The notes: a model not told the origin generated them from the letters alone. Counted from the first letter of the stretch, positions 4,385 to 38,239 are shown. The stretch: 58,576 bases of DNA from an uncultured beta proteobacterium (GCA_902825905.1 CADECO010000002.1:1-58576), one strand, 5' to 3'. Made by a program: numbers and translations.

Positions 4385-4478
4385 GTGCGCGGTCTTGATG
4401 ATCGGCTAAGTGCCGAAGTGACCTGACGCCTTTCCCCCGCGCGACGGCACGCAACACGCCCGTTCGCGTTCCACACAA

Positions 4479-4528
4479 CCCCAAGCGGGGACCGGTTTCC
4501 CGCTTGGGGCCGGTCTTCGCTTTTCGTT
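4479..4528 (+). terminator. Rho-independent terminator after recT
   Basis: GC-rich hairpin CCCCAAGCGGGGA...TCCCGCTTGGGG (4479-4509) followed by the T-rich run CTTCGCTTTTCGTTTT. Confidence 0.6.
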
Positions 4529-4540
4529 TTGGAGCCCTTC

Positions 4541-5605
4541 ATGAAAAGCGGTCGTTCATTAGTTGACCTGGCCACGGAGCTCGAACGCCAACTCGCCAGC
4601 AAACTGGACCTTCTCGTTCCCACTCGCCATCTGGTCCATCGTACCGAGCCACAAGGTGATTGTCGTTTGGCGATTACCGAGCCCGGCGCGCACAACCATT
4701 ACGCAGTCACCGAGCTTGCACGGCGCCAGTTGGCTGACAAGCTCAAGATCCCGTTCCAGTACTTCGAGCGCATGCGCGCTGAGCAGCCAACGCTGCTCGA
4801 CAGCAACGTGAACACTTGGCTTGGCTCGGGCGAAGACGAGCGGCTGATGGTGCGCATGCTCGATGGTCGAGTGCGCGCAATCCTGTCCGACCGGTACCGC
4901 CGGCTCGACCACGTCGACCTGGCCGAGCACATCCTGCCGATCCTGCAGCGTTTGCCCGATGCACGCTTCGAATCGGTCGAGCTCACCGAGACGCGCATGT
5001 ATCTGAAGGTCGTCACGCCGCGCGTCGAAGCGGAGCTTGCGCCGGGCGATATCGCGCAGGCGGGTGTAGTGGTCACCAATTCCGAAGTCGGATGCGGCAC
5101 GCTCTCAGTGCAACCGCTGCTGTTTCGGCTGATCTGCAAGAACGGCCTGATCGCGCCCGATACCGCGCTTCGCAAAACGCACCTGGGGCGCGCGGTGTCC
5201 GTCGACGACTCGGGGGTGATCTACAAGGACGATACGGTCGAGGCCGAAGACAAAGCGCTGTTCCTCAAAGTGCGCGATGTGGTCGAGGCCGCAGTGTCGG
5301 AGGCGACATTCAAGCTGATAGCCGACAAGTTCAGGCGAACCAAGGCGATCAAGCTGATCGGCGATCCGGTGAAATCGATCGAGGTCCTCGCGCAGCGCTG
5401 GCCGTTGAGCAACGAGGAGCGGCGCGGCGTGCTGCGATCGCTGATCGAAACCGGCGACTTGACCGGGTTCGGTTTGGTGAACGCGGTGACGCACTACTCG
5501 CAGGATGTCGAGAACTACGATCGGGCGACTGAGCTCGAGGCGCTGGGTGGTCGGCTCGTTGAGCTGCCGGCCAAGGATTGGAAGGAGGTGGCGGAGGCGG
5601 TGTAG
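4541..5605 (+). CDS. DUF932 (phage/plasmid-like, ICE-associated) protein
   Basis: ...DRYRRLDHVDLAEHILPIL......F.SVELTETRMYLKVV.P...AEL.PGD....GVVVTNSEVGCGTLSV.PLLFRLICKNGLI matches my recollection of the DUF932/DUF945 family common on ICEs. I prefer the ATG at 4541 (GGAG 6 nt upstream) over the TTG at 4529, which lies inside the terminator T-run. Confidence 0.8.
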   Translation: MKSGRSLVDLATELERQLASKLDLLVPTRHLVHRTEPQGDCRLAITEPGAHNHYAVTELARRQLADKLKIPFQYFERMRAEQPTLLDSNVNTWLGSGEDERLMVRMLDGRVRAILSDRYRRLDHVDLAEHILPILQRLPDARFESVELTETRMYLKVVTPRVEAELAPGDIAQAGVVVTNSEVGCGTLSVQPLLFRLICKNGLIAPDTALRKTHLGRAVSVDDSGVIYKDDTVEAEDKALFLKVRDVVEAAVSEATFKLIADKFRRTKAIKLIGDPVKSIEVLAQRWPLSNEERRGVLRSLIETGDLTGFGLVNAVTHYSQDVENYDRATELEALGGRLVELPAKDWKEVAEAV

Positions 5606-5757: not shown

Positions 5758-6036
5758 ATGAAAGAGCCCCAGACCAGAACCGCGCGCCTCGAGGCGCGCC
5801 TAAGCCCAGATGTTCAAAGTGTGCTCAAGCGAGCAGCCGATTTGCAGGGCCGCTCGCTGAGCGATTTTGTCATCGCTGCAGCACATGACACGGCGATGCG
5901 AGTGATCGAACAGGCGGAAATTCTCCGATTGTCCCGATCCGACCAGGTTCGTTTTGCCAAGGCTTTGATCAATCCGCCAGCTCCTTCGGCGGCGCTCAAA
6001 CGAGCCCGCAAGCGTCACCAGAAACTGGTGGTCTAG
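5758..6036 (+). CDS. DUF1778/TacA-like RHH antitoxin
   Basis: ARLEARLSPDVQSVLKRAADLQGRSLSDFVIAAAHDTA..VIE matches the DUF1778 antitoxin pattern. It lies 3 nt upstream of a GNAT toxin gene. Confidence 0.85.
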   Translation: MKEPQTRTARLEARLSPDVQSVLKRAADLQGRSLSDFVIAAAHDTAMRVIEQAEILRLSRSDQVRFAKALINPPAPSAALKRARKRHQKLVV

Positions 6037-6874: not shown

Positions 6875-8164
6875 ATGAGCCGCAAGATTACGGCTGAGCC
6901 AGGGCGCAAACTCACGGTGTCTCGCAAGAATCAAGCGGCTTCGCGACGCAGCCGGACTGTTATATCCCTATTTACCGGCGCGGGTGGGCTCGACTTGGGA
7001 CTAGAAGTCGCTGGCTTCAATATCGCTGCATGCGTTGAAATTGATGTGGCATCGCGCGAAACGCTGCGCACAAATCGGCCCGCATGGAAGCTCGTCGAGC
7101 CAGGCGACATTCACAGAGTCAGCCCCGAGCAGGTCCTTTCTCATGCTGGTGTTGAGCGCCGTGGGGCCTGCGTCGTGAGCGGCGGGCCGCCGTGCCAGCC
7201 GTTTTCAAAGTCGGCAAACTGGGCGACCAGGGGATCGAGCGGCATGCTCGATCCGCGCTCCGCGACGCTGCTCGCTTACCTCAAGTTCGTCGACGCCGCG
7301 CTGCCTCGCGTGTTCCTTCTCGAAAACGTGCGAGGACTAAGCGCAGGCACCTCGCAAAACAGCGCGCTGCAGCCGCTACGCGACGAGATTGATGCTATTA
7401 ACCGCCGCAACGGCACGAGCTACAAAGCGCAGGTGGTGCACCTAAACGCCGCTGACTACGGCGTGCCCCAGATCAGAGAGCGCGTGTTCATCATCGCAAG
7501 CATCGACGGCCGTGCCTTTGAGGCGCCCGCGGCCACGCACGGCGACGATTACGGGCTGGAGCCGTACCGCTCGGCTTGGGACGCCATCGGTGACCTCGAC
7601 AAGCCCGAGTGGCCATCCGAGCTCAACCCAACGGGAAAATGGGCCGAGCTTCTTAAGAGCATCCCCGAGGGCAAGAACTACCTCTGGCACACACCACGCG
7701 GTGGGGGCCGACCGCTCTTCGGATGGCGCACGCGTTACTGGTCATTCCTGCTGAAGCTTTCGAAGTGCCAGCCGTCGTGGACTATTCAAGCGATTCCCGG
7801 TCCCGCTACTGGCCCGTTCCATTGGCGAAGTAGGCTGCTCTCGGTCGAAGAGCTTGCCCGCCTCCAAACGTTTCCCAAAGATTTCCGCTTCATAGGGGAT
7901 CGACGCTCCGCGCATCGGCAGATCGGCAACGCCGTACCTTGCGCACTTGGTGAACTTCTCGGGCTGGAGATACGTCGGCAGCTTCTTGATGACATCGAAG
8001 CATCTGGCACACTCTCGCTCATACCAAATCGTCGCAATGGCATGGCGCGCGCGCACCATACGGGGAAGGTTCCTTCGAGCTATCGAGCGCTTGAGGGAGC
8101 GCATCGAGACCACCCCGGGCCCGGGCGGGGACCAGGCAGAGTATGGACCGCGAAAGCAAAGTGA
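6875..8164 (+). CDS. dcm: DNA (cytosine-5)-methyltransferase
   Basis: All hallmark C5-MTase motifs are present: I (SLFTGAGGLDLG), IV (GGPPCQPFS), VI (LLENVRGL), VIII (QIRERVFI) and X (RQIGNAVP). Confidence 0.95.
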   Translation: MSRKITAEPGRKLTVSRKNQAASRRSRTVISLFTGAGGLDLGLEVAGFNIAACVEIDVASRETLRTNRPAWKLVEPGDIHRVSPEQVLSHAGVERRGACVVSGGPPCQPFSKSANWATRGSSGMLDPRSATLLAYLKFVDAALPRVFLLENVRGLSAGTSQNSALQPLRDEIDAINRRNGTSYKAQVVHLNAADYGVPQIRERVFIIASIDGRAFEAPAATHGDDYGLEPYRSAWDAIGDLDKPEWPSELNPTGKWAELLKSIPEGKNYLWHTPRGGGRPLFGWRTRYWSFLLKLSKCQPSWTIQAIPGPATGPFHWRSRLLSVEELARLQTFPKDFRFIGDRRSAHRQIGNAVPCALGELLGLEIRRQLLDDIEASGTLSLIPNRRNGMARAHHTGKVPSSYRALEGAHRDHPGPGRGPGRVWTAKAK

Positions 8165-9729
8165 TTACCGAAACCCCGCGGACAGTGCCGATTCGGCCCG
8201 AAGTGGCCATGTACGCCGCGTTCGCGCGACTAAATTACAAGCCCTGGTACGCGATCAGCGAGTTTGTCGACAACGCTGTACAGAGCGCGCTATCCAACAT
8301 GGATGCGCTCCGGGCCGCCGACCAGAACTTCCGCCTGAACGTTGAGATTGATATCGACGAGAATCACATTGAGATCCGCGACAACGCGGCGGGAATCTCC
8401 GTTCGCGACTACGCCCGCGCGTTTCTTCCAGCGTCGCCGCCCCCGGACACGAAAGGCCTCTCGGAGTTCGGCCTCGGGATGAAAGCCGCTGCAAGCTGGT
8501 TTGCCTCGCAGTGGTCGGTTCGTACGACCGCTCTCGGCGAGAACGTCGAGCGCGAGATCACCTTCGACATACCTACGATCGTCGCGAGCAATCGCGATCG
8601 GCTAGACGCAATCGAGCGCAGCGCCCATGCCTCCGATCACTACACTGTGTTGTCGCTCGCCAACCTGCACGTTCACCCGCGAGGAAGGACGGTCGGAAGG
8701 ATCAAGGACCACCTTCGAAGCATATACCGTGTTTTTTTGCGCGACCGGCTACTTGAACTTCGCGTGAACGGTGAAAGCCTGAGCTACGAGTCGCCGCCGA
8801 TCTTACACGCGCCCCACCATGCCACTCCCGACGGGTCACCGGTGGAGTGGCGCAAGGACTTCGATCTCGATCTGGGTGATGGACACCGCGTGCGCGGATG
8901 GGCTGCCATTCTCGCAAGGGCGAGCGTAACCAATGCCGGCTTCTCGATCTTTCGTCGTCGTCGGCTCATTCAGGGCAGCTATGGCGAGGGTTACCGGCCC
9001 GAAACAGTCTTTGGCAAGCCGAATAAGTTCGTCTACCAGCGGCTCATCGGTGAGCTGGAGGTTGAAGGCTTCGCGGTAAGTCACACGAAGGACGGCATCC
9101 AATGGGAAGATTGGGAGGATGACATCCTCACCTGGATCAAGGACAAGCTCGATTCGGAGCCACTGCCCTTACTTGATCAGGCTGCCAACTACCGGGCGCG
9201 CGCAGCAATTGACCGGGATGCCATCGGGGAGGCGACGCGTGACCTCAGGAACGCCATCACGCAGCACCTGCCCCCAATCGTTGATCGTCAGCTCAACACC
9301 CCGCCTGACGAGTCGCCCCTAGACGCGCAGCTTCCCCCGCCGCCTGCCGACGCCACGTCACTCCGAACCGAGCAGGTCAGGCTCAATCTTGAGCACTCGC
9401 ACCGGAAATGGATCGTCGATATGGAGCTTTTGACCCATGGAACAGTTGACTCCTGGTATGAGCTTGCCGAACACGAAACGACTGGCGATACGACACGCAT
9501 ACAAATCAGGGTCAACCTCGGGCACCCCTTCATGGTGCGGTTCGTCTCACCTGACGGCGATGAGCTCGTGCCGTTCACCCGCTTGGCCGCCGCGCTTGCT
9601 ATCGCCGAGATCACAGCGCGAGAGCAAGGCGTCCGACAGGCCGGCACGCTGCGAATCAACCTTAACCAGATTCTACGGTCCGCGCTCTCTGGGCCGGTGC
9701 AGCACCAGGAGATCAAACATGGCAGCTGA
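8143..9729 (+). CDS. GHKL-superfamily ATPase (HATPase_c_3 / MORC-like)
   Basis: Bergerat-fold N-box ISEFVDNAVQSA and G1-box IEIRDNAAGIS, then GLSEFGLGMK (G2-like). It overlaps the dcm 3' end by 22 nt. A later start (the M at about 8209) is possible. Confidence 0.8.
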   Translation: MDRESKVITETPRTVPIRPEVAMYAAFARLNYKPWYAISEFVDNAVQSALSNMDALRAADQNFRLNVEIDIDENHIEIRDNAAGISVRDYARAFLPASPPPDTKGLSEFGLGMKAAASWFASQWSVRTTALGENVEREITFDIPTIVASNRDRLDAIERSAHASDHYTVLSLANLHVHPRGRTVGRIKDHLRSIYRVFLRDRLLELRVNGESLSYESPPILHAPHHATPDGSPVEWRKDFDLDLGDGHRVRGWAAILARASVTNAGFSIFRRRRLIQGSYGEGYRPETVFGKPNKFVYQRLIGELEVEGFAVSHTKDGIQWEDWEDDILTWIKDKLDSEPLPLLDQAANYRARAAIDRDAIGEATRDLRNAITQHLPPIVDRQLNTPPDESPLDAQLPPPPADATSLRTEQVRLNLEHSHRKWIVDMELLTHGTVDSWYELAEHETTGDTTRIQIRVNLGHPFMVRFVSPDGDELVPFTRLAAALAIAEITAREQGVRQAGTLRINLNQILRSALSGPVQHQEIKHGS

Positions 9730-11872
9730 CGCTGATCACATCGAGGTCCTTCCGCCAGGCGACGAGCCGGGGCGTTGGCAGCCGGTCGTAGGCGATGTGA
9801 CCACGCAGCTTCGCGAGTATTTCCTCGATAGCCGCCTCTTGCCTACAAGGGAAGGCGCTGATCGCGTTATCGCCGAAGCACATCACGTGTTGCAACGATG
9901 CAACTCCCCGAGGAGCAACGCCCCGCGACGAATCGGGCTTGTATGCGGGTATGTCCAGAGCGGAAAGACCGCCTCCATGACGGCGGTCGCCGCTCTTGCC
10001 CGCGACAACGGTTTTCGAATCATCCTCCTCCTTGCGGGAGTTACGACCAACCTCGTCATCCAGAATCGTGATCGCATGGAGACGCAGCTTCGCGAGGCCG
10101 CGCCGGAATGGACGTGGCTCATGGTTTCGAATCCGCGCCTCCCGAACGGCTTGCCACCGATCGAGGGGCTCGTGCAGGAGTGGCGCAGCGAACACTACGA
10201 CGAGCGCGACCGGCGAACGCTCTTCATCACGGTCATGAAGAACCACCGTCATTTGGCCAATTTGGCCGCGCTGCTCTCACGCGTCGACCTGCGGGGTATC
10301 CCAGCCATCATCTTCGATGACGAGGCCGATCAAGCCAGCCTCAATACGCGGCCGAATGACCCGCTAGCCAGCACGACCTACCGGAAGATCGAAGAACTCC
10401 GCGATACAGTGCCGACTCACACGTACTTGCAATACACGGCTACGCCGCAGGCACCGCTTCTCATTACGCGGATCGATTCGCTCTCTGCCGACTTCGCGGA
10501 ACTCGTATCTCCTGGCGACGGCTATACCGGTGGCCAAGAGTTCTTCCGAGGACCGCTTCCCCTCGTCGAAACGATTCCTCCGGCGGACATCTTTCCCGAC
10601 GGGCAGCTACTGGTTGAGCCACCTGAGAGTATGGTACGTGCGATGCAAGTTTTCTTTACGGGAGTCGCGGCTGGCAGGCTCCAACCGGTGAGATCGCACC
10701 GCTCTATGCTCTTGCACCCGTCACGGGCCACTGATACGCATCGTCGTTATCACGACTGGGCAAACGCGCTCAAGGATATTTGGCATCGGACCCTCCTCGA
10801 TCACAACGAGCCTGATCGGCCGGAGCTCATCGAGGAGTTTCGCCGAGCCCATACCGACCTCGCCGGCACCCTCGACAACTTGCCCCCTTTCGATCAGCTC
10901 CTTGCGAGACTTCCAGTGGCAATCAACCAGACGGCGATCACACTCGTCAACTCGGTCGATGGACACGAGGTGCCATGGCAGAACGGATACTCACATATTC
11001 TCGTCGGCGGGGAAAAGCTCGGTCGCGGCTACACTGTAAAGGGCCTAACTGTGACGTACATGCCGAGATCTCCGGGCGGGTGGACAGCGGACACGATCCA
11101 GCAGCGAGCGCGATTCTTCGGTTATCACAGGGATTATCTCGGCTACTGCAGGGTGTACCTACACCAAGAAGTCCGCACCGCTTACGTTTCCTACGTGACG
11201 CATGAGGATGACATGCGGGCTCGGCTCACCGAGCACAGCGGAAGGCCACTCCAGGAGTGGCGCCGGATGTTCTACTTGGACGAACGGCTCGCTCCCACGC
11301 GACGAAACATCCTCGCGAGCCCCTGGATGCGCGCGAGCCTTGATCGCGACGGATGGTTCGCACCAAAAGGTCCCCAAAACGCACCGGAGGACGGTCGCCA
11401 CAACGCAAGGCTTCTCAGCCGTCTCGACGGGCTCGATTTCACACCGCATGAAGAATATCCGCGCCATTCCTACGCAGTCATGTACCTGCGGGACCTCTAC
11501 GAGCAGGTGCTCGTTCCGTTGTCGTATCTGCATGAAAATGACGCCTTGGGGTTATGCGTCGTGAACTGCAATATCAAGACGCTGATCGAGAACGACAACG
11601 ATGCACGGTGTCTCGTGTATCGGATGGATGCGGGACAGCCCCCTCGCGTTCGCCAGCTAACCAATGGGCTCATTCCGCAAGTGTTCCAAGGTCGGTCCAG
11701 CGCGGGAGCAGCTTCGTATCCGGGCGATCGGGCATTTTTCGATCAAACGATGACCACCGTGCAGTTGCACAACCTTCACCTGCAAGAGGGTAACAACCAT
11801 ATCGGTGACTTCCTGATCATCGCCATCAGGCTGGGTCGTCACAAAGCGCTCTTAGTTCACGACGATCCGTAA
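9719..11872 (+). CDS. Z1-domain-type P-loop NTPase (SF2 helicase-like)
   Basis: I chose the ATG at 9719, which overlaps the upstream stop by 11 nt; the track ORF from 9437 runs in a shadow frame of the GHKL gene. It has Walker A (CGYVQSGKTAS) and a DEAD-like Walker B (IIFDDEADQAS). The long C-terminal region contains GEKLGRGYTVKGL, as I recall for Z1 proteins. Confidence 0.8.
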   Translation: MAADADHIEVLPPGDEPGRWQPVVGDVTTQLREYFLDSRLLPTREGADRVIAEAHHVLQRCNSPRSNAPRRIGLVCGYVQSGKTASMTAVAALARDNGFRIILLLAGVTTNLVIQNRDRMETQLREAAPEWTWLMVSNPRLPNGLPPIEGLVQEWRSEHYDERDRRTLFITVMKNHRHLANLAALLSRVDLRGIPAIIFDDEADQASLNTRPNDPLASTTYRKIEELRDTVPTHTYLQYTATPQAPLLITRIDSLSADFAELVSPGDGYTGGQEFFRGPLPLVETIPPADIFPDGQLLVEPPESMVRAMQVFFTGVAAGRLQPVRSHRSMLLHPSRATDTHRRYHDWANALKDIWHRTLLDHNEPDRPELIEEFRRAHTDLAGTLDNLPPFDQLLARLPVAINQTAITLVNSVDGHEVPWQNGYSHILVGGEKLGRGYTVKGLTVTYMPRSPGGWTADTIQQRARFFGYHRDYLGYCRVYLHQEVRTAYVSYVTHEDDMRARLTEHSGRPLQEWRRMFYLDERLAPTRRNILASPWMRASLDRDGWFAPKGPQNAPEDGRHNARLLSRLDGLDFTPHEEYPRHSYAVMYLRDLYEQVLVPLSYLHENDALGLCVVNCNIKTLIENDNDARCLVYRMDAGQPPRVRQLTNGLIPQVFQGRSSAGAASYPGDRAFFDQTMTTVQLHNLHLQEGNNHIGDFLIIAIRLGRHKALLVHDDP

Positions 11873-11875
11873 GAG

Positions 11876-12871
11876 ATGCACGACCTCGCCACGCTGTTCC
11901 GTTCACTCCCGGCCATCGTCGGCTCCGACGACTGCTATGCCGTGCAGCCCGTTGGTACGCGAGAGCGGTACCGGATTGGCCGCGACGCCGTAGGCAATCC
12001 TGCGCTCCTCATCGCAACTGAGCCTGCAACCCAGCGGGCGTCGGCCTTGCCGCTCGAGTTTTCAAATCTTTCGTTTCGACCACGCTGTCAGTGCCGGGTA
12101 AGGCAAGACGCGTTACCTGACGTTATCCAAACATTGGCGGTGCTGAAGTGCACGACCGACGACGCAGCGCTCCGCGAGTACTTTCTCCGCTCTCTATCGG
12201 GTGCGCTCGACGTGCTGCCTGACGTCCCCACAGAGCAGACCCTGATTGAGGCTGTGTTGAGGCTCGTCGAATTGTTCCGTGCGCTTGAGGCACCGCCTCG
12301 GAAGTCGCTCCAGGGGCTGTGGTGCGAACTCTTCTTGATATCGAGGTCTACTCAGATTCGTCAAGCGGCCCTTGCCTGGCACAGCGATCCGATAGCCCTC
12401 TTCGATTTCACCGCTGGTACTGATCGCTTAGAGGTCAAGTCAGCAGTGGGTGGAATTCGCCGACACCACTTCAGCCTTCAGCAGCTCACACCTCCCAATG
12501 GGGTTTGCGCCGTGGTCGCATCCTTCCTACTTGAAGAAAGCGGCGGCGGATTATCCATCGCCGCACTGTGGGACGAGATCGCCGGCCGGCGGGAGCTAAC
12601 CACCGAGGCCAAGAACCGCCTGTTGCATGTGCTTACGATTGCCTTGGGCCGCGATTGGCGAAAGGCCAATCGGGTTGCTTTCGATCCCGAGATTGCACTG
12701 CGCGATCTACGATTGTACGAGGCGACCGCGATTCCAAAGGTCTCCCTGAGCATCCCTGTAGAAGTGAGTGAGGTCCATTTCTGCTCGGAACTCACCGATG
12801 TTCCTACAATCTCTCTTGCGGCGGCAGCGCGTAGGGGAGGCCTCTTTCAAGCCCTCTTTCAGCGGGCGTAG
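11876..12871 (+). CDS. PD-(D/E)XK-motif protein (DUF4420-like putative nuclease)
   Basis: A candidate nuclease core is ALFDFTAGTDRLEVKSAVG (D...EVK). The size and position (after Z1, before vsr) match the 'PD-(D/E)XK motif protein' I recall from this neighbourhood. The start lies 3 nt after the Z1 stop. Confidence 0.6.
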   Translation: MHDLATLFRSLPAIVGSDDCYAVQPVGTRERYRIGRDAVGNPALLIATEPATQRASALPLEFSNLSFRPRCQCRVRQDALPDVIQTLAVLKCTTDDAALREYFLRSLSGALDVLPDVPTEQTLIEAVLRLVELFRALEAPPRKSLQGLWCELFLISRSTQIRQAALAWHSDPIALFDFTAGTDRLEVKSAVGGIRRHHFSLQQLTPPNGVCAVVASFLLEESGGGLSIAALWDEIAGRRELTTEAKNRLLHVLTIALGRDWRKANRVAFDPEIALRDLRLYEATAIPKVSLSIPVEVSEVHFCSELTDVPTISLAAAARRGGLFQALFQRA

Positions 12872-17007: not shown

Positions 17008-17034
17008 GAGGCAGCTTCGGCTGCCTCTTTTTTT
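17008..17034 (+). terminator. Rho-independent terminator
   Basis: GAGGCAGC-TTCG-GCTGCCTC followed by TTTTTTT. Confidence 0.65.
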
Positions 17035-18534: not shown

Positions 18535-18570
18535 GTGTTATCGCGTAGCTCTGATCGTCAAACTTCACAA

Positions 18571-18605
18571 AGCCGCTCGGAACTCCCCGGGCGGCTTTTT
18601 TGTTT
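18571..18605 (+). terminator. Rho-independent terminator after the primase gene
   Basis: AGCCGCTCGG-AACTCC-CCGGGCGGCT (one mismatch) followed by TTTTTTGTTT. Confidence 0.6.
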
Positions 18606-18794: not shown

Positions 18795-19835
18795 ATGGGG
18801 CTTGTCCGCATGGCGGTATTCGCCAGCGTGATGACGGCCGCATCCCTCGTTCACGCACAAGCGAGTTTGCGCCCGATGAGCCCGCCAGAGATCGCCGGTC
18901 GGGTCAACTGGCAGCCCCAGTGCAGCAACTACGCGATCCTGGGGTATTGCTATTGCAACGGCGTGCCGTGCGCGTGGCATGTCGCGCACTACCTGCCGGT
19001 GTCCTTCATCGAAACCGTTCGCCGTCCCGGCGAAACGCTGGTCGTCGGGCTCGATTTCTCGCAGATGTCGCTCGCCGCCGGCGCAGGCCTTGCCGGGCAT
19101 ACCCGCCAGATCAACCAGGAGGGCATGGACAACACCTTCGAGGCGCGTAACTACTCGCTCCCCGAGCAGTACTTGCAGTGGGAAACCGGCTGCATGACCT
19201 GCAAGTCGAGCTACGCGAAGGTGCCTTACAGCGACACCTCGAACGGTTTGGTGGGTAACTGGGGCAGCGGCGCCTGCGGAACGTTGAGCAACGTCCTCAA
19301 CAAGCTCACCTCGTTTCAACGAGACAGCGGCTCGGGGCAGGGCACCTCGATGTCGCTCTACTACGCCAGCGAAGCCGATGCCTTGCATTGGCGTACCGGC
19401 TGCCGCGACGTGTCGCTGACGAATCTGCTGCGCTCGAACGCCTTCACCTGCGGCGCGAATGGCCTGGCCGAGTTTGCCGGAGCGGCCGAGCCGATGGCGC
19501 AACTCCTCGGTCGCGACGCGTGCATCGGCAATTGGAGTCCGCACTATCCGCGTCAGATGCGCACCCGCGGTCCGACTCAGGTGATCGCCGCCGCGGTCGC
19601 GGCGTACCGCAGCATCAGCATCGCGCGCACCGACACACAGACCTTCCCGTTTCCGGTGGATACCGCGGGGAAGTTCCAACTCGCCTATCCGAAGATCAGC
19701 CAGTGCGTAAGGCCGGGAAAAGTCCCCCTGCCCACCGACATGCGACCGAGCCCCGATGGCGCATTCGGCTGGATCTACTGGCGACCGGTGAGCTGCTGCA
19801 TCCCGTTCGAAGTCGTCGAGAACTGTTTCAGTTGA
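18795..19835 (+). CDS. TraU-family protein (F-type / ICE PFL_4710-like pilus assembly protein)
   Basis: An ATG at 18795 gives the signal peptide MGLVRMAVFASVMTAASLVHAQA. The protein is Cys-rich with TraU-like landmarks: GYCYCNG.PC, CIGNWSPHYPRQM (compare GxWGxxYPR), FQLAYPKISQC..PG, and the C-terminal FGWIYWRPVSCC (compare F TraU GYLMWRKRNC). Confidence 0.75.
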   Translation: MGLVRMAVFASVMTAASLVHAQASLRPMSPPEIAGRVNWQPQCSNYAILGYCYCNGVPCAWHVAHYLPVSFIETVRRPGETLVVGLDFSQMSLAAGAGLAGHTRQINQEGMDNTFEARNYSLPEQYLQWETGCMTCKSSYAKVPYSDTSNGLVGNWGSGACGTLSNVLNKLTSFQRDSGSGQGTSMSLYYASEADALHWRTGCRDVSLTNLLRSNAFTCGANGLAEFAGAAEPMAQLLGRDACIGNWSPHYPRQMRTRGPTQVIAAAVAAYRSISIARTDTQTFPFPVDTAGKFQLAYPKISQCVRPGKVPLPTDMRPSPDGAFGWIYWRPVSCCIPFEVVENCFS

Positions 19836-19990
19836 GTGAGAGTTGGTCAATGAACGTGCGAGGTGTCGCGCAGTGAATCGCACGGTGCAAAACGCGCGCT
19901 GGCGAACGTCGGATGCTCGGGCGGTACGCGAGTGAGACATCGCGATACGTAGAAACGCGTGGTGCATCGCCACGCTGATGGGAGGAAGTG

Positions 19991-21187
19991 ATGGTGAGCA
20001 CCACCGTGCCGTCATTCGAGGACTTCATCGCGGCGAACGAGCGCTCGGTGAAGGCGTTCGCTGCGAAGTTCGATCTGCCGCGCGACGAAGTGGTGAACAC
20101 CGCCTATGTCGCCTGGAGCGAGGCGCGCGAGGTGTACTCCCCCAACCATCCCAGCCGCGCCAAGTTCAACACCTTTGCCGTCGATAAGCTGCACGGCATG
20201 CTGTTCGCCGGCACCACCGATCCGTGCGCGTTCGCCCAGAGCGCCGACACGAAGTACGAGGAATACGCGCTCGGCGATCAGAAGTTCTTCGAGCCCAGGG
20301 ACCGTGGACTCGAATCGGGACGCGAGCCCGGCGGCGCGGTGGACGAGCTGGTCGAGGATTTCCTCACGCGCGCCTACAGCGACCTGGCCTTCGACGATGC
20401 GATCCGCGGACATGCGGTCTACGCGCATCCGCACTATCGCGTCGTCATCGACGGGGTGCTGGCCAACATACCGCGCCCCGAGCTCGCGGCACGGCTCAGT
20501 CTCACGCCGCGGCGGGTCTATCAGATGCTCTACGAAATCGAGACGATCATCCGTCGCAACGATCCGATCCTGGATGATCGATTAATCGCGATACCTCCGG
20601 ACGGAGTGCTCGATGCCGATCCGGTCCGGCTCCGCAATCTGGGCTCGCTGTCGTTCAAACCGCTCAAAGAGCTCGATCGCGATCTTCTCGTGGCAACCCT
20701 TCGCGTCCAGATCAAACACGGCCAGCTGGTGCCGGTGGTGATCGACCAGTTCTACCGGGTGCTGGTCGGTGATTACGAATGCGGTGCGGCGCACACGTTG
20801 GGCATTGCAGCGATCAAGACCATCCTGCGGCCGATCGGTCAGGGCAAGGAATCGCGCGACGATGAACGGTTCGCCGCGCTCAAGCGCGAGCTCGATCTCA
20901 CCGACGCGCGCCCAACCTATCAGCTCGAGCTGATCGATTCGCTCAAGAAACGGGTGCAGAAGGGCTCGCTCGGGCCCCTGGTCGGGGCACGGCTTGCCCA
21001 TCTGCCGTTGCGCCAGCAGGAGCATGTGACCGGGCAGCTCGGCTGGTACGTGACAGCGCTCGAGATCGACGAGGCCAACGAGCTGGTGGCGGCCCATCAC
21101 GCCGGACGCCTGGATCGGGTGCTCGAGCGAATCGCCAACGCCATGCATGCCAAAGCCGATCGGGAGCGCGCAAAGAGGGCGCAGTAG
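19991..21187 (+). CDS. Fusion protein: sigma-70-like N-terminal region + ParB/Srx-like N-terminal domain
   Basis: ATG at 19991 after GGAGGA. Region-2-like VVNTAYVAWSEAREVYSPNHPSRAKFNTFAVDKLHG; region-4-like HTH PRPELAARLSLTPRRVYQMLYEIETIIRR; then a ParB-box-like LVPVVIDQFYRVLVGDYECGAAHTLGIAAIKTIL. Similarity was judged by eye. Confidence 0.6.
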   Translation: MVSTTVPSFEDFIAANERSVKAFAAKFDLPRDEVVNTAYVAWSEAREVYSPNHPSRAKFNTFAVDKLHGMLFAGTTDPCAFAQSADTKYEEYALGDQKFFEPRDRGLESGREPGGAVDELVEDFLTRAYSDLAFDDAIRGHAVYAHPHYRVVIDGVLANIPRPELAARLSLTPRRVYQMLYEIETIIRRNDPILDDRLIAIPPDGVLDADPVRLRNLGSLSFKPLKELDRDLLVATLRVQIKHGQLVPVVIDQFYRVLVGDYECGAAHTLGIAAIKTILRPIGQGKESRDDERFAALKRELDLTDARPTYQLELIDSLKKRVQKGSLGPLVGARLAHLPLRQQEHVTGQLGWYVTALEIDEANELVAAHHAGRLDRVLERIANAMHAKADRERAKRAQ

Positions 21188-22159
21188 ATGCGCATGTCCT
21201 CGGCCGCCGCGCTGTTGGATGACGCGGTCCATCGTATCGGTCTGCCAGCGGAGACGCTCATCTGGTTACTGGAGAGCGAGATCGAGGCCTACTACCTCGC
21301 GCGCGGCCAATATGCGCGGGCGCGGGTGAGTCTCACCGCTGGTGTTCCGAAAGTGGAGGCGGTGGAGATCGCGCCGGTCGGTGCTATGTGGCCTGAGCAG
21401 CGCTTCGCCTCGGTATGGCAACCGTCACCGGACGCCTTTCGGCGCGTGGTCGACGACTACGCCCGTCATCAGATCGGTCAACTGGGTTGGGAGGTTACGC
21501 GGGCGCGTTGCGTCGCGATCAAAGACCAATATAGTTTGGTTGAGTTGTCCGACCATCCTGCGCTCGAGGGCGAGATCGCGGTGTTGCCGAACGCATTGCT
21601 CGGCGCGAGAGAGGCGAGCCTCTGGCGCAAGGGGATGGAGCGCTACGTGGCGGTGTATCAACCGCGCCGCGAACACTACGATGGCGCCGAACCGTGGCGC
21701 GCGCTCGAGCCGCGCTTCCTGGCCACGCGCCGGCACAGCATCTTTCTGCGGTCGTTGGTGCGTAACTTCGTCGGCATCTTCCCGCGCGCCGAGATCATCG
21801 GCGAGTTCGGGCTGTTGATCCTCGATTCGGACACGGACTTGGGAGCCTTCCTGGGCAAGGGTGGTGAGAACGTGCGGGCACTGGCCGAGCTTGCGGGCCT
21901 CACCGCAATCAAGGTCGCCCATGAGCCAAGCTCTCCGCGTCCGGAGGGACGCTTGAAGAGCGCGATCGAGCAGATCACGCCGGTTCGCCCAGCCGATGTA
22001 GCGATCACGCCACCAGCGCGAGAGCAAGATCCGTGGACGATCGCGGTGCGCGAAGACGAAACCAAGCGGCTGCTCGGACGAAACGGCAATCGGCTCACCA
22101 TGATCGCGCGGCTTGCCGGTGTGCGCGTACGGGTCGAGTCTCGACGCATGGGAGGATAG
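21188..22159 (+). CDS. NusA-like protein (S1-like segment + two KH-type GXXG motifs)
   Basis: It starts on the base after the preceding stop. ATRRHSIFLRSLVRNFVGIFPRAEIIGEF parallels the NusA LSRTHP.FL..LF..EVPEI..G.VEI. The KH motifs are DLGAFLGKGGENVRALAELAGLTAIKV and RLLGRNGNRLTMIARLAGVRVRVES. Confidence 0.55.
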   Translation: MRMSSAAALLDDAVHRIGLPAETLIWLLESEIEAYYLARGQYARARVSLTAGVPKVEAVEIAPVGAMWPEQRFASVWQPSPDAFRRVVDDYARHQIGQLGWEVTRARCVAIKDQYSLVELSDHPALEGEIAVLPNALLGAREASLWRKGMERYVAVYQPRREHYDGAEPWRALEPRFLATRRHSIFLRSLVRNFVGIFPRAEIIGEFGLLILDSDTDLGAFLGKGGENVRALAELAGLTAIKVAHEPSSPRPEGRLKSAIEQITPVRPADVAITPPAREQDPWTIAVREDETKRLLGRNGNRLTMIARLAGVRVRVESRRMGG

Positions 22160-22162
22160 TTC

Positions 22163-22681
22163 GTGTCGAGCACGGTCATCTGCGTAATTGGCATCGCATC
22201 GACCCTGGCCAGTGTTCAACCGAAGCTTGCGCCGGACACGCGCAATTGGATCGCCGGCAACGTCTGTGCGGCCGCGAACGATGCTGCGGTCGATCCGCGC
22301 CTGTTGGTCGCCTATCTGCTGACCGAGAATCGTGGCATCGATCTATGGTCGATCCGGCCAGCGGCGCTTGGCAACGATCATGGGTTGTTTCAGATCAACA
22401 GCTACTTCCAGAAGAGCCGCCCGCACTTGCGCGATGTGCATCATCCCTACTACGGTGCGCTGACTGCCGCACAGGTGATGAAGGACAACCTGAAGCAGTT
22501 CGGGTGGACGTGGCAGGCGTTTGCAGCCTATTGGTCACCCGGACAATCGCAAGCAGGGACGCCAGCCGCGCGCGCGTACTACGCGCGTTACGCAACGAAC
22601 TATCAGCTTGCAAATCGATTCTTCACGCAAGCCGGCAACAGCGAACAGCCCCGAACCTCGGTTCAAGGTCACAAGCAATGA
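22163..22681 (+). CDS. Lytic transglycosylase (SLT domain; VirB1 / R64 PilT-type)
   Basis: LLVAYLLTENRG (catalytic E), then DHGLFQINS and AYWSPG (compare AYN.G). GTG start 3 nt after the upstream stop. Confidence 0.8.
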   Translation: MSSTVICVIGIASTLASVQPKLAPDTRNWIAGNVCAAANDAAVDPRLLVAYLLTENRGIDLWSIRPAALGNDHGLFQINSYFQKSRPHLRDVHHPYYGALTAAQVMKDNLKQFGWTWQAFAAYWSPGQSQAGTPAARAYYARYATNYQLANRFFTQAGNSEQPRTSVQGHKQ

Positions 22682-22693: not shown

Positions 22694-23206
22694 CTAGAAA
22701 CCGATCCGCCGCTTCGGTGGTTCTGGCGGTGGAACCATCAGTTTCTTGATCAGGGCGTAGATTTCAGCAACCGCCTCATCGGTAAGATCGAGCTTGCGCT
22801 CGAGGCGGGAGAGTTTTGCGGCAAGCTCCTTATGCGTGGCAAGCAACTCACGCAGTCGCACGAATGCGCGCACGACAAGGATGCTCATCTCAACCGCCCG
22901 CTCGGAGCGAAGGACACTTGCGAGTTGGAGCGCGCCGTGCTCAGTGAAGGCATAGGGAGCCGTTCGTCGACCACCCCAACTTGAGATCACGGATTGTGAT
23001 CTCAAGTCTTTCCACTCCTGCGCGCTGAGTTGAAACATGAAATCGGGCGGGAAGCGCTCGGCGTTGCGCTTCACCGCTTGCACGAGCGCGCGGGTCTCGA
23101 CGTCGCACAGCGCAGCGAGATCCCCATCGAGGAGGACACGCAACCCGCGGACTACGCGGATCTGTCCGCTCACGGACTCGATAGGTACGACACCCGTACT
23201 TTTCAT
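22694..23206 (-). CDS. ORF6N-domain (KilA-N-related) DNA-binding protein
   Basis: I.VVRG.RV.LD.DLA.L..VET..L.QAVKRN..RFP.DFMFQLS..EW..LRSQ.V.S.WGG.R..PYAFTE.G...L.SVL.S..AV..SI..VRAFV.LR matches the ORF6N family. It is the only minus-strand gene inside the island core. Confidence 0.8.
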   Translation of the reverse strand: MKSTGVVPIESVSGQIRVVRGLRVLLDGDLAALCDVETRALVQAVKRNAERFPPDFMFQLSAQEWKDLRSQSVISSWGGRRTAPYAFTEHGALQLASVLRSERAVEMSILVVRAFVRLRELLATHKELAAKLSRLERKLDLTDEAVAEIYALIKKLMVPPPEPPKRRIGF

Positions 23207-23942: not shown

Positions 23943-24250
23943 GCGAGGGGACGAGCGCGATGCGTGTGGGCGAGTTCGTCGGTTGGAGCGCGGTGGTCGG
24001 CATGTCGATCTGGGCCGGCAGCATCGCGATCGCCGATCGCGTGGACAAACCGGTCGCGGTGTGCCGCCCGCTCGCATGGGGTGCCGAATTGCTGCGCGAT
24101 GCGCTCGCCGCGATCAAGCCGGGCAGTTTTCTGGACGCGACCGGGGACTCGATCCGCGTGGGCACCGCGCGTGCGTGCCTCGCGTACGTCGGCAACTACC
24201 TCCAAGTGACCCAGTCCTCGCCGCCGCAACGGGACGGAATGGCCCGATGA
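23939..24250 (+). CDS. Hypothetical small membrane protein
   Basis: The GTG start overlaps the upstream stop. One TM helix (VGWSAVVGMSIWAGSIAIA). Its stop overlaps the next start (ATGA). Confidence 0.4.
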   Translation: MSEGTSAMRVGEFVGWSAVVGMSIWAGSIAIADRVDKPVAVCRPLAWGAELLRDALAAIKPGSFLDATGDSIRVGTARACLAYVGNYLQVTQSSPPQRDGMAR

Positions 24251-25590
24251 TCACGCCACAGAATCCGATCACGATGTGGCTGCGCGTCGGCTACTTGTGG
24301 CTGTGGCTAGTCGGGGTAACGTTCTTCGCCTGCTACGCGACGCTTGGCAATGAATCGCTCGCGCGTTTCGCGACCGACGCGCTCGGCGCCGAAGCGTTCG
24401 CGATGCTGAGCGAACGTGGCGCGCTCAAGCTTTACACCGCGGCGGTCGCGGCCAACGTGCACGAAGTGCTCCCGTTTCTTGCACTGGGTGCAGCGCTCGG
24501 CGCGCTGTGCCGCCTGATCGATTGGTCGCGCCGCTTCTTCAAGAGGCGCGCCGCCGCGCGGGTGAACGTCGTCACGGATCGGTTCGGTGGCCGCGTCATC
24601 ATGCATCAAGCGGCGCTCGAGCACGATCCCAACGCCGCCATGCCGCTGTTGCGCCTGAGCAAGCGCGAACCCGTGCCTGCCGGCGCATCACCGATCGAGC
24701 GCGAGGTCTTAGCGCTACTCGCGGCGCACCCAGAGATCCCGGCCGATCCCGACGGCGTGCACGGCGTGTCGCTCTTCGACCATAGTCTGAACACGTGGGA
24801 ACGCGCCTGTACTCAGCATGGCGCGGGATCGCTGGTGGCCACGCTCTCGCTCTGTCATGACCTGGGCAAGCTGCTCGCTTACGTACCCGACGCAGACGGT
24901 GACTATCGACGCATCGCCATCCATCAGCCGCTCGCCTTGCAATTGGTGCGCCGATTGCCGGCGTTCGCGCAGCTTGATGCACCCGCGCGTGACCGTTTCA
25001 TCCGCTTGCTCACCGCGCTGGTGACCGGTGCCATTCCGATCGATACCACGGACGAGGACCGCGCGATCCTGCGCGCATGCAAAGGTGCTGACTATGCCGC
25101 GACCGGCGCCGAGCGCGCTGCGCAAGAAGAAGAGGAACGCGCGGCGACCGATCCATCACAAGTGGCGAGCCTGGTGCGCACAGCGCTCCCCTCCCTGCTG
25201 CAAGCGCTGAACGTCAATCGCTGCCACGACCGGAGCGTGCGGCCCGAGGCGATCTATTTGCCGGAGAAGAATCGCCTGTTGCTGCCGCTTGCCAGTTTGC
25301 GCAAGCGCATTCCGAGCGTACTTCCGGCGGAGATCGAGCTGGGCATCGATCTGGCCGTACCCGAGAAGCGCGCGAAACAGGCGAACGCGTTCGTGTTGGC
25401 GGTCGCGCGGGCGGTGCTCGATCTCGACACCGTCTTCGAGGGCGCGAGCGCCGACGATGGGCTGTTCATGATGCGCAGCGGGCATTTCTACGAACCGAAT
25501 GTCGTCGTCGTCCGCGCCGAAGGCTTCGCCGATTCGCTAATCAAGCAATGGGGGATGTGGAGCTATGAGATCGAGCTGGTCAAGCAGTAG
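24247..25590 (+). CDS. Membrane-anchored HD-domain protein, possibly related to MobH (TraI_2)-type relaxase HD modules
   Basis: I chose the ATG at 24247; the track ORF from 23983 overlaps two small genes in an Arg-rich shadow frame. The N-terminus has 2-3 TM helices. Then HPEIPADPDGVHGVSLFDHSLNTWE ... LSLCHDLGKLLAY resembles the H..GGLL.HSLE ... LLHDLGK pattern of HD phosphohydrolases and MobH relaxases. Confidence 0.55.
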   Translation: MITPQNPITMWLRVGYLWLWLVGVTFFACYATLGNESLARFATDALGAEAFAMLSERGALKLYTAAVAANVHEVLPFLALGAALGALCRLIDWSRRFFKRRAAARVNVVTDRFGGRVIMHQAALEHDPNAAMPLLRLSKREPVPAGASPIEREVLALLAAHPEIPADPDGVHGVSLFDHSLNTWERACTQHGAGSLVATLSLCHDLGKLLAYVPDADGDYRRIAIHQPLALQLVRRLPAFAQLDAPARDRFIRLLTALVTGAIPIDTTDEDRAILRACKGADYAATGAERAAQEEEERAATDPSQVASLVRTALPSLLQALNVNRCHDRSVRPEAIYLPEKNRLLLPLASLRKRIPSVLPAEIELGIDLAVPEKRAKQANAFVLAVARAVLDLDTVFEGASADDGLFMMRSGHFYEPNVVVVRAEGFADSLIKQWGMWSYEIELVKQ

Positions 25591-36406: not shown

Positions 36407-38239
36407 ATGCCGATCAGACACCAGCGGCTACGACGGTTGTTCGGCGCGATTGTGCTATTCACCATCATCAACATCGCGAGCGCGGCCGACCAAGTGCTGG
36501 TCGTCACGCAAACGATCACCGGCCCGCGCGAAGGGTTGGTCTCGACCTTAGTTGCGCGGGTGAGCTCGGTGCTGCCGACCCGGCGCGAAGTCACGCTCGC
36601 CATGGATGGCCGGCCGCTTGCCGACGGCGCCGGAATCACACCGCTTGGCGCGCGCGACTACGGAACGTGGCTCACCAGCGGACAGCTGCTCTCGGACGCT
36701 AAAACCCACCTATCTACTTCAGCGCCGGCATTCGCCGCCTCGATTCGTCGTGCCATGCAGGCCAGCGGTGTTGGCACTGCGCACTTCAGCCTGATGCAGC
36801 GTGTCGCGGTCGCCGGCACCGCCACACCGCAATTCCTCGTGTGGTCGATGGTGGTGTATCGGAGCGAGCGGCCGGTGTTCGGCGATCCGCGCTTGGTCCC
36901 ATCGATCGAGACGACCTTGCATGTCGTGCATACACCGGTGCGCGTGGCGGCGGGGTTGCCGGTGGGTTGGGCTTATCCGGACGCCGGCACCTTGCAATGG
37001 CGCATCCTCGATCGGCAGGGCGCGCCGCTCACCGGTTGGTCGAGCATCACCATCGGCAACACCTACGACGAGCCGGATGCGAGCAGCGGCGCAGTCGATC
37101 CGGATCACGGGCTCAAGTGCTTGCTCGGGTCGAACGCCAGCACAGCCTGCTCACGCGGGGTGGCTAACGTGGCGAGCTTGATGAATCAAACCGGGCATAC
37201 GCGCGCGATCGTCGACTATCGACGCACCTTGCAGCCGGCCTATGACCAGATCGAGTCGCCGCCGGGTAGCCGTCGCTTCGAACAAGTGGCAAGGGTCGCT
37301 GTTGCGGTGAGCCGTCGCGAGCTGGCGCCGAGTAGCTGCGGCGCGGGTGAATATCGCAACGAAGGTGCCTACGGGTTCGAGCTTGCAGAGCAAGTCGAGC
37401 GCTATGCAGCGCAGATCGACGGCTCGTACTCGCTGATCGATCGCACCGCGCATCGATCGGTATCACCCAGCGTTCCGTTCAAGGTGGCCAAGCAGTTGAA
37501 CGAGGACGCCACTGCGGCACAACTGGCTGACAAGTTGATCGATCCTGCCAATCCTGGCGGTGCGCTGATTGCCGCCAGCAGCGTTCGCGGACTAGTGGGG
37601 CTCGCACCGATCACCACCACCAAGGAAGGCGCGAGTGCGGCGGAAAGCTTCGTCATCGGCGACATCTTCCACGGCGCATGCGGGCGCGCGGTGCAACTGG
37701 CTGCTCGGTGCGGTGCCACCGGCCAGATCGAATTGAGTCTCGGCATGAATCACGCGGTGCCCGGATGCAGCCCGCGCTCGATGAGCTTTAGCGAGCGTGC
37801 CGCGTTCACGCTCAAGCGTGGCGTCCCGGTTCGCAATCAGGTTGCCGCGTTCGAAGGCATGGGATCGGTGCCGTGGAGCTACGACGGTGATCGATCGGTG
37901 ATCTTCCATGCGGTGCCGGTGGCAACGGACGCGGGGACGACCCTTGCGCCATCGGTGTTTGCGGCGCAGTTGTTCGCGCCGAATGTGGGTTATTACGTGA
38001 GGGAGAATTTCCCCAACGGAGGACCGCTCGATTTCTATCTCGAGCACGCCGGTTGCCCGAGCGGACAGATCGCGGGCTCGATGCTGAGGTTGGACCCATC
38101 GCAGTGCTACATGCCGGACGCAAGCGGCACGATGACCGGCTGCCAATTCATGCCGGGCGGCGATGGTGGATCGTTCGAGTCGTGTCAGCGGTATCGCGCA
38201 ACGGGCCCTATCGCTCGCTTGGTTCAGAGTCTCCGATGA
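36407..38239 (+). CDS. Large secreted protein of unknown function
   Basis: Signal peptide MPIRHQRLRRLFGAIVLFTIINIASAADQ. 610 aa with several Cys. I recognise no family. Confidence 0.55.
   Translation: MPIRHQRLRRLFGAIVLFTIINIASAADQVLVVTQTITGPREGLVSTLVARVSSVLPTRREVTLAMDGRPLADGAGITPLGARDYGTWLTSGQLLSDAKTHLSTSAPAFAASIRRAMQASGVGTAHFSLMQRVAVAGTATPQFLVWSMVVYRSERPVFGDPRLVPSIETTLHVVHTPVRVAAGLPVGWAYPDAGTLQWRILDRQGAPLTGWSSITIGNTYDEPDASSGAVDPDHGLKCLLGSNASTACSRGVANVASLMNQTGHTRAIVDYRRTLQPAYDQIESPPGSRRFEQVARVAVAVSRRELAPSSCGAGEYRNEGAYGFELAEQVERYAAQIDGSYSLIDRTAHRSVSPSVPFKVAKQLNEDATAAQLADKLIDPANPGGALIAASSVRGLVGLAPITTTKEGASAAESFVIGDIFHGACGRAVQLAARCGATGQIELSLGMNHAVPGCSPRSMSFSERAAFTLKRGVPVRNQVAAFEGMGSVPWSYDGDRSVIFHAVPVATDAGTTLAPSVFAAQLFAPNVGYYVRENFPNGGPLDFYLEHAGCPSGQIAGSMLRLDPSQCYMPDASGTMTGCQFMPGGDGGSFESCQRYRATGPIARLVQSLR

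Follow-up and report, generated by a model that had tools for sequence, protein, structure and literature searches.

In a stretch of 58,576 nucleotides (nt) from an uncultured beta proteobacterium (GCA_902825905.1 CADECO010000002.1:1-58576; the whole stretch is called the window below), we analysed two adjoining genes, A and B, that lie inside a co-directional gene array of about 38 kb to which family scans of the open reading frames (ORFs) of the window give the look of a mobile element. The product of gene B almost certainly has the fold of the transcription factor NusA, and gene A very probably encodes a sigma factor of the extracytoplasmic function (ECF) type, with regions σ2 and σ4, fused to an N-domain and a helix-turn-helix (HTH) domain of ParB/Noc type. 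That the two products act together, as a transcription module encoded by the elements of a rare family with TraU-like and type IVb pilus genes, we regard as evenly balanced between yes and no.

Both ORFs exist as described in a first-pass annotation of this DNA, with B starting on the nucleotide after the stop codon of A. The peptides quoted there are all present, at residues 39-70, 170-190 and 249-277 of A and at residues 180-198, 223-229 (GKGGENV) and 297-303 (GRNGNRL) of B. GC content at the three codon positions (0.70/0.41/0.81 for A and 0.70/0.49/0.76 for B) is a typical coding signature in this sequence of 62-65% GC. Read from its ATG, A has the length of an identical database protein, P0034 (398 amino acids, aa).

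19988-21187, + strand: gene A, 399 aa from a GTG start (398 aa if read from the ATG at 19991)
21174-21190, + strand: A-B junction, with a Shine-Dalgarno-like AAGAGGG at 21174-21180, the TAG stop of A at 21185-21187 and the ATG of B at 21188
21188-22159, + strand: gene B, 323 aa, predicted minimal NusA paralogue

The AAGAGGG run is located 8-14 nt upstream of the B start codon. Together with the position of this ATG, on the base right after the A stop, it suggests that A and B are translationally coupled.

The NusA-like product of gene B

The predicted domains of B follow the order found in bacterial NusA, from an N-terminal domain (NTD) of the type that binds RNA polymerase (RNAP) to a second KH domain.

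21188-21481, + strand: NusA-NTD-like (RNAP-binding-type) domain, B residues 1-98
21482-21727, + strand: S1/OB-fold domain with five beta strands, B residues 99-180
21728-21937, + strand: R181, a DSIFLR motif and KH1 with GKGG, B residues 181-250
21728-21730, + strand: codon of R181
21854-21865, + strand: GKGG, B residues 223-226
21938-22159, + strand: KH2, B residues 251-323, with GRNG at 22076-22087 (residues 297-300); isoelectric point (pI) 11.5

In single-sequence scans, B alone gave weak matches, namely Pfam KH_1 at the cut-off (E 1.9e-4), within KH2 (residues 251-323), and nusA_arch (E 0.0087). When 1.84 billion representatives were searched exhaustively with phmmer, 33 clusters of B relatives came up, and 20 full-length members were used for the family profile and alignment. 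This profile matched NusA of T. maritima (1hh2) with E 1.2e-7, and two stretches were collinear with it, B 9-65 with NTD residues 7-64 and B 215-317 with KH1-KH2 residues 242-339. When the B family was aligned by hhalign with E. coli NusA, B 7-320 paired with NusA 5-343 at 90% probability. In this alignment, the NusA residue opposite R181 is R199, and R181 is the only invariant residue of the B family (20/20). The (S/T)R motif is likewise kept in all 20 members, and G-x-x-G is found in KH1 of 17 and in KH2 of 18 of them.

In agreement with the profile searches, the AlphaFold model of B, built from the 20-member alignment, is confident, with a predicted local distance difference test (pLDDT) of 87.4 and a predicted TM-score of 0.70. 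In the model, the N-domain is alpha/beta, the OB domain has five strands, and both KH domains are of alpha-beta-beta-alpha-alpha-beta topology. The top 17 Foldseek matches of this model in the PDB were all bacterial NusA (E 1.2e-14 to 1.1e-8, over about 240-370 columns), including full-length alignments, of about 360 columns, to 13 full-length NusA chains. Among the matches were the structure of a NusA-paused complex, 6flq, and the S1-KH1-KH2 part of M. tuberculosis NusA with RNA, 2asb, for which the TM-score normalised by target length was 0.69 and the root-mean-square deviation 4.8. The NusA domain order that had been read from the bare sequence, with an S1-like part followed by two KH GXXG motifs, thus stood up to both profile and structure tests. 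B stops after KH2, and the AR1 and AR2 domains are absent.

B is only about 15-18% identical to NusA, and its scores are far under the curated cut-offs (TIGR01953, the NusA equivalog: 10.9 bits, E 0.16, against 253.4; nusA_arch: 16.4 bits against 74.35), which makes it a distant paralogue and not an orthologue of NusA. The rimP-nusA-infB context was not found either; at all loci examined, the neighbours were TraU-like, A and SLT genes on a mobile element. On gene context, identity and scores, we rejected the possibility that B is the host's own nusA.

One B-like protein stands apart. In P0012 (L012 1681-4290; 869 aa), a B-like NTD-S1 part (residues 11-243) is joined to a UvrD-type helicase, suggesting either a chimera of assembly or recombination or a real NusA-like/UvrD fusion. 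Since the helicase is without the first approximately 45 profile positions and its contig seems to be a fragment, the protein may be a chimera, and we dropped it as functional evidence.

The sigma-like and ParB-like halves of gene A

For gene A, a family of five sequences was available for profile building (the window copy, P0035, P0036, and the homologues of loci L013 and L016).

20009-20212, + strand: σ region-2-like four-helix domain, A residues ~8-75
20213-20401, + strand: acidic variable linker, predicted disordered, A residues ~76-138; pI 4.05, pLDDT <50
20402-20563, + strand: σ region-4-like HTH, A residues ~139-192; pI 10
20618-20887, + strand: ParB/Srx-type N-terminal domain, A residues ~211-300
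20768-20779, + strand: position equivalent to the ParB GERR box, GDYE in the window copy
20888-21160, + strand: ParB/Noc-type helical (HTH) domain, including ARLAHLPxRxQE, A residues ~301-391; pLDDT 70-85

All five members matched TIGR02937 (sigma70-ECF), with E-values of 4.9e-8 (L013), 5.6e-5 (P0035), 0.006 (P0036), 0.022 (window) and 0.07 (L016). The alignment was nearly end-to-end in four of them (model positions 2/5 to 156/163 of 165), with σ2 and σ4 homology in the correct order, and covered the σ4 part only in L016. As the window protein alone is weak (E 0.022), the sigma call rests on the family and not on the single sequence. Further support came from individual members and from other comparisons. 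The L013 homologue matched Pfam Sigma70_r2 (E 0.0031) and Sigma70_r4 (E 0.0068), and P0035 matched a PHROG sigma family (E 0.0098). The best non-ParB match of the five-sequence profile in the PDB was σ2 of the ECF sigma factor CnrH (E 0.033). By hhalign, A 9-66 fell on RpoE 21-76 and A 157-190 on RpoE 150-183, each alignment being weak alone (P 0.014), and the σ2-like domain of A aligned with region 2 of a sigma factor encoded by plasmid pQBR57 (E 4e-4). In the model of A, residues 10-73 form four confident helices (pLDDT 75-90). The σ4 and ParB parts are basic and the linker between halves is acidic and rich in indels in alignments of A. The sigma-like regions 2 and 4 proposed for this protein therefore hold under profile tests at the family level, where their homology is well supported, and A is a putative sigma factor.

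For the ParB half, the five-sequence profile matched Spo0J of B. subtilis (6sdk) with E 9.9e-8 and Noc (7nfu) with E 1.7e-7, the latter over A 211-391 and Noc 20-206, a span that comprises the ParB N-domain and the HTH domain with its 'RL..LP...Q' segment. These E-values of about 1e-7 bear out the ParB-like segment of the first-pass annotation. Profile searches thus recognise sigma-, ParB- and NusA-like domains in the two proteins, and for B the structure search does so too.

A CTP-dependent clamp role, one of those known for ParB-like domains on mobile elements, fared differently. At the position of the GERR box, the window copy reads GDYE, P0035 GDYA, P0036 GVTK, L013 GVKR and L016 GAKR. Because GxxR is kept in the distant L013 and L016 copies, the CTP-binding arginine is ancestral and has been lost in the clade of the window. 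In addition, A has no C-terminal dimerisation domain, as the alignment stops at residue 206 of the 252 of Noc and A ends 8 residues later. With both the GxxR arginine and this domain missing, a CTP-dependent clamp is unlikely for the window copy, and we rejected A as a ParB clamp of that type.

Linkage of A and B and their genomic surroundings

A lies directly before B in six loci, which are the window, L002/L005 (a proteobacterial metagenome-assembled genome, MAG), L006 (partial, with a C-terminal fragment of A only), L008, L013 and L016. Across these loci, identities range from 26 to 42% for A and from 29 to 45% for B. A has very few relatives. Two came from database searches (P0035, 42% identity; P0036, 34%), and two more turned up when the DNA before B homologues was inspected (L013, 31%; L016, 26%). 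The two genes overlap by 4 nt in L002, abut in L006 and are separated by 8-12 nt in L008 and L016. The gene calls for L013 put 64 nt between A and B, with the tblastn match starting about 10 nt after A; here the pair is kept although its flanks differ, and it is divergent from a T2SSE ATPase gene. Co-occurrence of the two genes, which had been in question, thus extends to five further loci, but the pairing is facultative. In 5 of the 11 loci with upstream DNA at hand, B is present without A, from which it follows that B is not dependent on A. Before B there is an 82-aa gene in L001 (plasmid pOS401), a histidine-kinase/receiver hybrid in L014, unrelated small ORFs in L017 and L012, and in L010 TraU followed by a 208-aa gene and a lambda-P-like 185-aa gene. 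We considered the last two as a split, two-gene equivalent of A and rejected this, since both are unrelated to A; the 208-aa gene has no family match.

A second, A-less subfamily of B has a PLD-like (PLDc_2) gene of about 300 aa after B and before the SLT gene.

L001 12984-13886: PLD-like gene
L009 1626-2558: PLD-like gene
L014 2065-2964: PLD-like gene

The backbone across loci reads TraU-[variable slot]-B-[PLD]-SLT-p23391-p23983-PilL-secretin. This shared order identifies B as a core gene and A as one frequent occupant of the slot before it. Compared with L002, the window shows 42% identity for A and 40% for B, and 66%, 60% and 56% for TraU, PilQ and the secretin. A and B are therefore among the most diverged, fastest-evolving backbone genes, as would be expected of fast-evolving specificity factors.

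The family is rare. Word-indexed homology searches returned 2-3 matches per protein, and the GTDB species genomes and JGI metagenome contigs contained no new locus beyond the already known MAG. A megablast of the region against plasmids gave no match. In tblastn searches of 72,556 plasmids, there was no match for A and a single one for B, on pOS401 (24% identity); neither A nor B matched any of 50,697 phage genomes, and BFVD held no NusA-like viral protein, with S1-domain matches only.

Within the window, the array begins with RecE-like, RecT and DUF932 genes and a block of C5-methylase, HATPase, Z1 and DUF4420 genes. It continues with a T2SSE-type ATPase, a Toprim primase, the TraU-like gene, A, B and an SLT-like transglycosylase, and ends with type IVb pilus genes (TcpQ/PilL-like, secretin, PilQ-type ATPase, PilR-type platform protein and prepilin).

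18569-18598, + strand: strong hairpin of an intrinsic terminator, with a T-run, separating the primase gene from the TraU-like gene; -22.5 kcal/mol, z-score -2.9
18795-19835, + strand: TraU-like gene, probably the first gene of its unit (Pfam TraU E 3.8e-15; TIGR03756 E 9.6e-11); start approximate, placed at the Met before a signal-peptide-like stretch
22163-22681, + strand: SLT-like lytic transglycosylase gene (Pfam SLT E 0.003; IagB E 4.9e-5)
542-616: tRNA-Met, at the left edge of the window
45227-46689: large serine recombinase, apparently split in two ORFs, one with the Resolvase domain and the other with the Recombinase domain and Zn-ribbon

The TraU-like gene is syntenic in L002, L008, L010 and L012, and the SLT gene is the conserved 3' neighbour of B, leading into the pil genes. 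It follows B directly or past the PLD-like gene in L002, L006, L007, L008, L009, L010, L014 and L016. An equivalent hairpin with a T-run stands at the same position before TraU in L002, L008 and L010, that is, in four elements with the window. As this terminator is conserved 5' of TraU, TraU-A-B-SLT and the genes after them are probably transcribed as a separate unit, which leads into some 17 kb of co-directional pil genes, and the conserved position of the terminator suggests a regulated operon boundary. Strong terminator hairpins are found at 17008-17027 as well as 18569-18598 in the window, at 5789-5810 and 8638-8658 in L002 and at 427-450 in L008. We found no sigma-70 consensus promoters between 16 and 41 kb, and no conserved block in an alignment of the TraU-A intergenic regions.

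Several other features of the window and of related loci were recorded. At the left end of the array (2587-5605) are a RecE-like DUF3799/PD-(D/E)XK nuclease, RecT and the DUF932 protein, and a single 18-bp perfect palindrome, GCGCGCCTCGAGGCGCGC, lies at 5782-5799, intergenic after the DUF932 gene. On pOS401, a recE and a primase homologue are likewise found upstream of the B homologue. The four genes at 6875-12871 (C5 cytosine methylase, HATPase_c_3, Z1-domain and DUF4420 PD-(D/E)XK) have the look of a restriction or defence system. Upstream of its backbone, L002 carries a ParB gene and a PRTRC cassette (1-4415; PRTRC_E, Prok_Ub, alpha-hel2, Prok-E2_D, ThiF), where the window has different genes. 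An ORF6N-domain (Rha/antirepressor-like) gene at 22694-23206, on the - strand between SLT and the next backbone gene, is absent from that position in L002, L007 and L008 and so looks like an insertion specific to the window. Three large ORFs (23983-25590, 36407-38239 and 38053-39690) have no family assignment; a 535-aa product among them, with weak HD-domain hints only, is kept in nearly all related loci. Just past the pil array there are duplicated segments (40409-41925; 86-96% identity, spacing of 638-1303 bp). Repeats of 79-90% identity (43811-44087 with 53955-54218, and 49079-49152 with 54366-54439) connect the recombinase region with the chromosomal-looking part, where metabolic genes of ordinary type are found from about 49 kb on. 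A second copy of the tRNA-Met 3' end, as an att site, was sought in the window and not found.

Readings of the gene pair and comparison with known systems

In the classical sigma-NusA cycle, sigma region 4 and then the NTD of NusA occupy the same site on RNAP, the beta-flap tip. Coupled adjacent genes homologous to exactly sigma and NusA, at the head of a pilus/transfer array, suggest a private relay from initiation to elongation, and dedicated control of the transfer/pilus operon by A and B is plausible on sequence grounds. In such a relay, the sigma half of A would recruit host core RNAP to the element DNA and provide promoter contacts, and the ParB-like half, with its CTP motif lost in the window copy, would hold the protein on this DNA. 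B would then stand in for host NusA in these elongation complexes, on the surface vacated by sigma region 4, and would tune pausing and termination and, through them, expression of the long TraU-A-B-SLT-pil array. In its most specific form, the proposal is a private sigma-NusA cycle in which a ParB-tethered sigma loads host core RNAP only on the element and hands the beta flap to B, resulting in a processive, silencing-resistant complex for the transfer/pilus genes; we hold this form to be tentative and rather doubtful.

The folds and homologies, the conserved motifs, the coupling of the genes and their synteny are the observations on which the transcription-module reading builds, and a number of results count against it. 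Curated sigma cut-offs (42.9 bits for TIGR02937; 24 and 24.1 bits for Pfam r2 and r4) were missed by all A family members, the best reaching 32.8 bits (L013) and the window copy 14.4. The model of A, built from 3 sequences, is poor overall (pLDDT 55.6), and its Foldseek matches were not significant (best E 0.26); about half of the top 50 were sigma factors, and beyond this enrichment we did not count them as evidence. Signals that could guide such a module were not found where we looked for them. A search of 1-48 kb for a recurring parS-like palindrome with arms of at least 7 found none outside the duplicated segment at 40.7/41.3 kb, and when nine intergenic regions were searched by a crude k-mer method for a bipartite promoter motif in common, nothing rose above shuffles. 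There were no convincing + strand intrinsic terminators in the pil region between 22 and 40 kb (14 weak matches, compared with 10.9 ± 3.6 in shuffles), and an Rfam scan returned only tRNA and no other known RNA element. As no relaxase, type IV coupling protein (T4CP) or VirB4 was detected among the ORFs scanned in the window, the labels 'conjugative' and 'transfer operon' are partly an assumption. B is basic (pI 9.0), whereas housekeeping NusA is acidic. Finally, RNAP binding by A or B, the tethering to DNA and the target operon are what we infer from the sequences rather than direct observations.

The facultative pairing bears on the question in another way, because in the A-less loci B stands beside replication-type or PLD-like genes. 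Being independent of A and elsewhere found next to replication or nuclease genes, B may have a role on RNA or single-stranded DNA that does not involve RNAP. B would then be a nucleic-acid-binding backbone factor whose substrate is RNA or single-stranded DNA of the element, and could serve, for example, for priming, DNA processing or RNA chaperoning in the course of transfer or replication. A would be a KorB/BisD-style regulator or a partition-type protein, with a helical sigma-like half that merely binds DNA or dimerises, and the two genes would be neighbours in a variable slot. B is indeed kept family-wide while the gene upstream varies between A and the alternatives seen in L010, L001 and L014, one B subfamily is paired with a PLD-like nuclease, and the neighbours in the window include the Toprim primase and the RecE/RecT-like genes. 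The basic charge, in KH2 above all, would suit such a role, and S1 and KH domains are known to bind single-stranded DNA as well. We nevertheless consider this explanation unlikely, since B keeps a NusA-type NTD, which in NusA serves to bind RNAP and is not known to act on nucleic acids, the N-terminal half of A aligns end-to-end with the sigma model, including region 2 and hence beyond an HTH, and A and B stay coupled in the changed surroundings of L013.

If B does act at RNAP, it could also do so as a decoy or antagonist of host NusA, occupying its site on the enzyme or titrating its partners and thereby blunting NusA/Rho silencing, with A as a separate initiation factor. A full NusA fold with a highly diverged sequence and inverted charge, an end after KH2 with no AR1/AR2 regulatory domains, and a pil region in which no internal intrinsic terminators call for an antiterminator of its own are all compatible with this. 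There is also a parallel, in that antagonism of NusA is reported to be a route to antitermination for the NusG paralogue LoaP (PMC12691694). The conserved GXXG loops and the R199-equivalent arginine, however, argue for selected RNA binding, for which a pure decoy has no need, and we regard a decoy as improbable. Very improbable, in our view, is that A and B are decayed relics, passengers derived from ParB and NusA that have degenerated and now lack any function related to transcription. The loss of GxxR in the clade of the window and the position of all matches under curated family cut-offs would fit such decay, but both ORFs are intact with a coding signature, identities of 22%-46% and invariant motif residues are conserved across up to 20 diverged sequences, and the B model is confidently folded.

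Returning to the transcription-module reading, family members of A and B are unnamed or called 'hypothetical protein' in all sources, and in a full-text search of about 8 million papers no specialised paralogue of NusA came up. Nor did the literature searches bring up a NusA-like protein encoded by plasmids or by integrative and conjugative elements (ICEs), a sigma-ParB fusion, or a description of a sigma-ParB protein paired with a NusA paralogue. Mobile elements with a sigma or elongation factor of their own, and ParB-family regulators of transfer genes, are already known; new, as variants of that kind, are a NusA paralogue on a mobile element and the sigma-ParB architecture. Specialised NusG paralogues such as RfaH, ActX/PrfaH and LoaP are well known, and to our knowledge NusA has been treated as a universal, single-copy housekeeping factor. 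A NusA paralogue of mobile elements would extend the principle of private elongation factors to a second Nus factor, and the diverged B would be a natural probe of which NusA surfaces matter. A sigma-ParB fusion would represent a third design of ParB-family transcription regulators beside KorB and BisD, and the decay from GVKR/GAKR to GDYE would offer a built-in comparison of CTP-dependent and CTP-independent versions. If the private sigma-NusA cycle were true, B would be the first NusA paralogue to have a regulon of its own, and A the first case of a sigma factor joined to a module of the ParB family. As the family is rare, its ecological impact is probably small and the interest is mechanistic.

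B shares with bacterial NusA (1hh2, 1k0r/2asb, 6flq) the order and folds of NTD, S1, KH1 and KH2, the GXXG loops and the R199-equivalent arginine, and like many NusA proteins outside the enterobacteria it ends after KH2. It differs in its low identity (~15-18%), its basic charge, the lack of AR1/AR2, its mobile-element context and the tiny size of its family. A has the σ2 plus σ4 layout of ECF (group 4) sigma factors such as CnrH (4cxf) and E. coli RpoE, in which regions 1.1 and 3 are absent; motifs resembling region 2.2 ('EVVNTAY..W' and 'F.T(F/Y)') can be recognised in it, as can the region-4 HTH. Its σ2-σ4 linker, in contrast, is acidic and unusually long (about 60-90 residues), it bears a C-terminal ParB/Noc-like extension of some 200 residues, and no anti-sigma gene is evident. 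With the clamps ParB, Spo0J and Noc (6sdk, 7nfu, 7bnk), A has in common a homologous ParB/Srx N-domain followed by an HTH domain. Unlike them, the window copy reads GDYE for GERR, the ENLQR box is not conserved, the ParB module lies C-terminal to another domain, and there is no C-terminal dimerisation domain.

Among regulators of mobile elements, one that is close in design to A is a ParB-fold protein of ICEclc, BisD, which we compared by its published description. Together with BisC, BisD activates 11 transfer promoters of ICEclc over about 50 kb; it consists of an N-terminal ParB clamp and a unique C-terminal activator domain, and needs both BisC and CTP (R95) (PMC12409273). As is proposed for A, a ParB fold encoded by an element is fused to a module of transcription-activating type (PMC12409273), but in A the domain order is reversed, the other half is sigma-like, the neighbouring gene encodes a NusA paralogue and not BisC, and the GxxR arginine is missing. 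For B, parallels are the plasmid NusG paralogues PrfaH (IncX) and ActX, which are encoded upstream of, and co-transcribed with, conjugation operons and work by antitermination, through which PrfaH is essential for transfer (PMC11880322, PMC7819879). These proteins, like host RfaH on F tra, resemble B in concept, as a universal elongation factor of RNAP has a private paralogue encoded at the head of a conjugation or pilus operon; the difference is that they are of NusG/KOW and B of NusA/S1-KH type, with no ops-like recruitment site identified at the present element.

The third precedent concerns the gene slot itself. The Pseudomonas megaplasmid pQBR57 (L018 5782-7299, WP_192963215.1) encodes a genuine σ70-family protein of 505 aa, which matches RpoS/RpoD (E 1e-10) and is extended at its N-terminus by about 230 residues. 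Its gene is close upstream of a TraU-like gene, with one small opposite-strand ORF in between, and TraU-like relatives occur on 133 Pseudomonas plasmids. A plasmid-borne sigma gene beside a TraU-like gene thus stands in the same slot as A, although the pQBR57 protein, with its N-terminal extension, is a clear σ70-family member and A is below threshold; a tblastn search of pQBR57 with B found no NusA-like gene. By analogy, the precedents of PrfaH/ActX, BisD and pQBR57 would make the logic of a transcription module formed by A and B credible.

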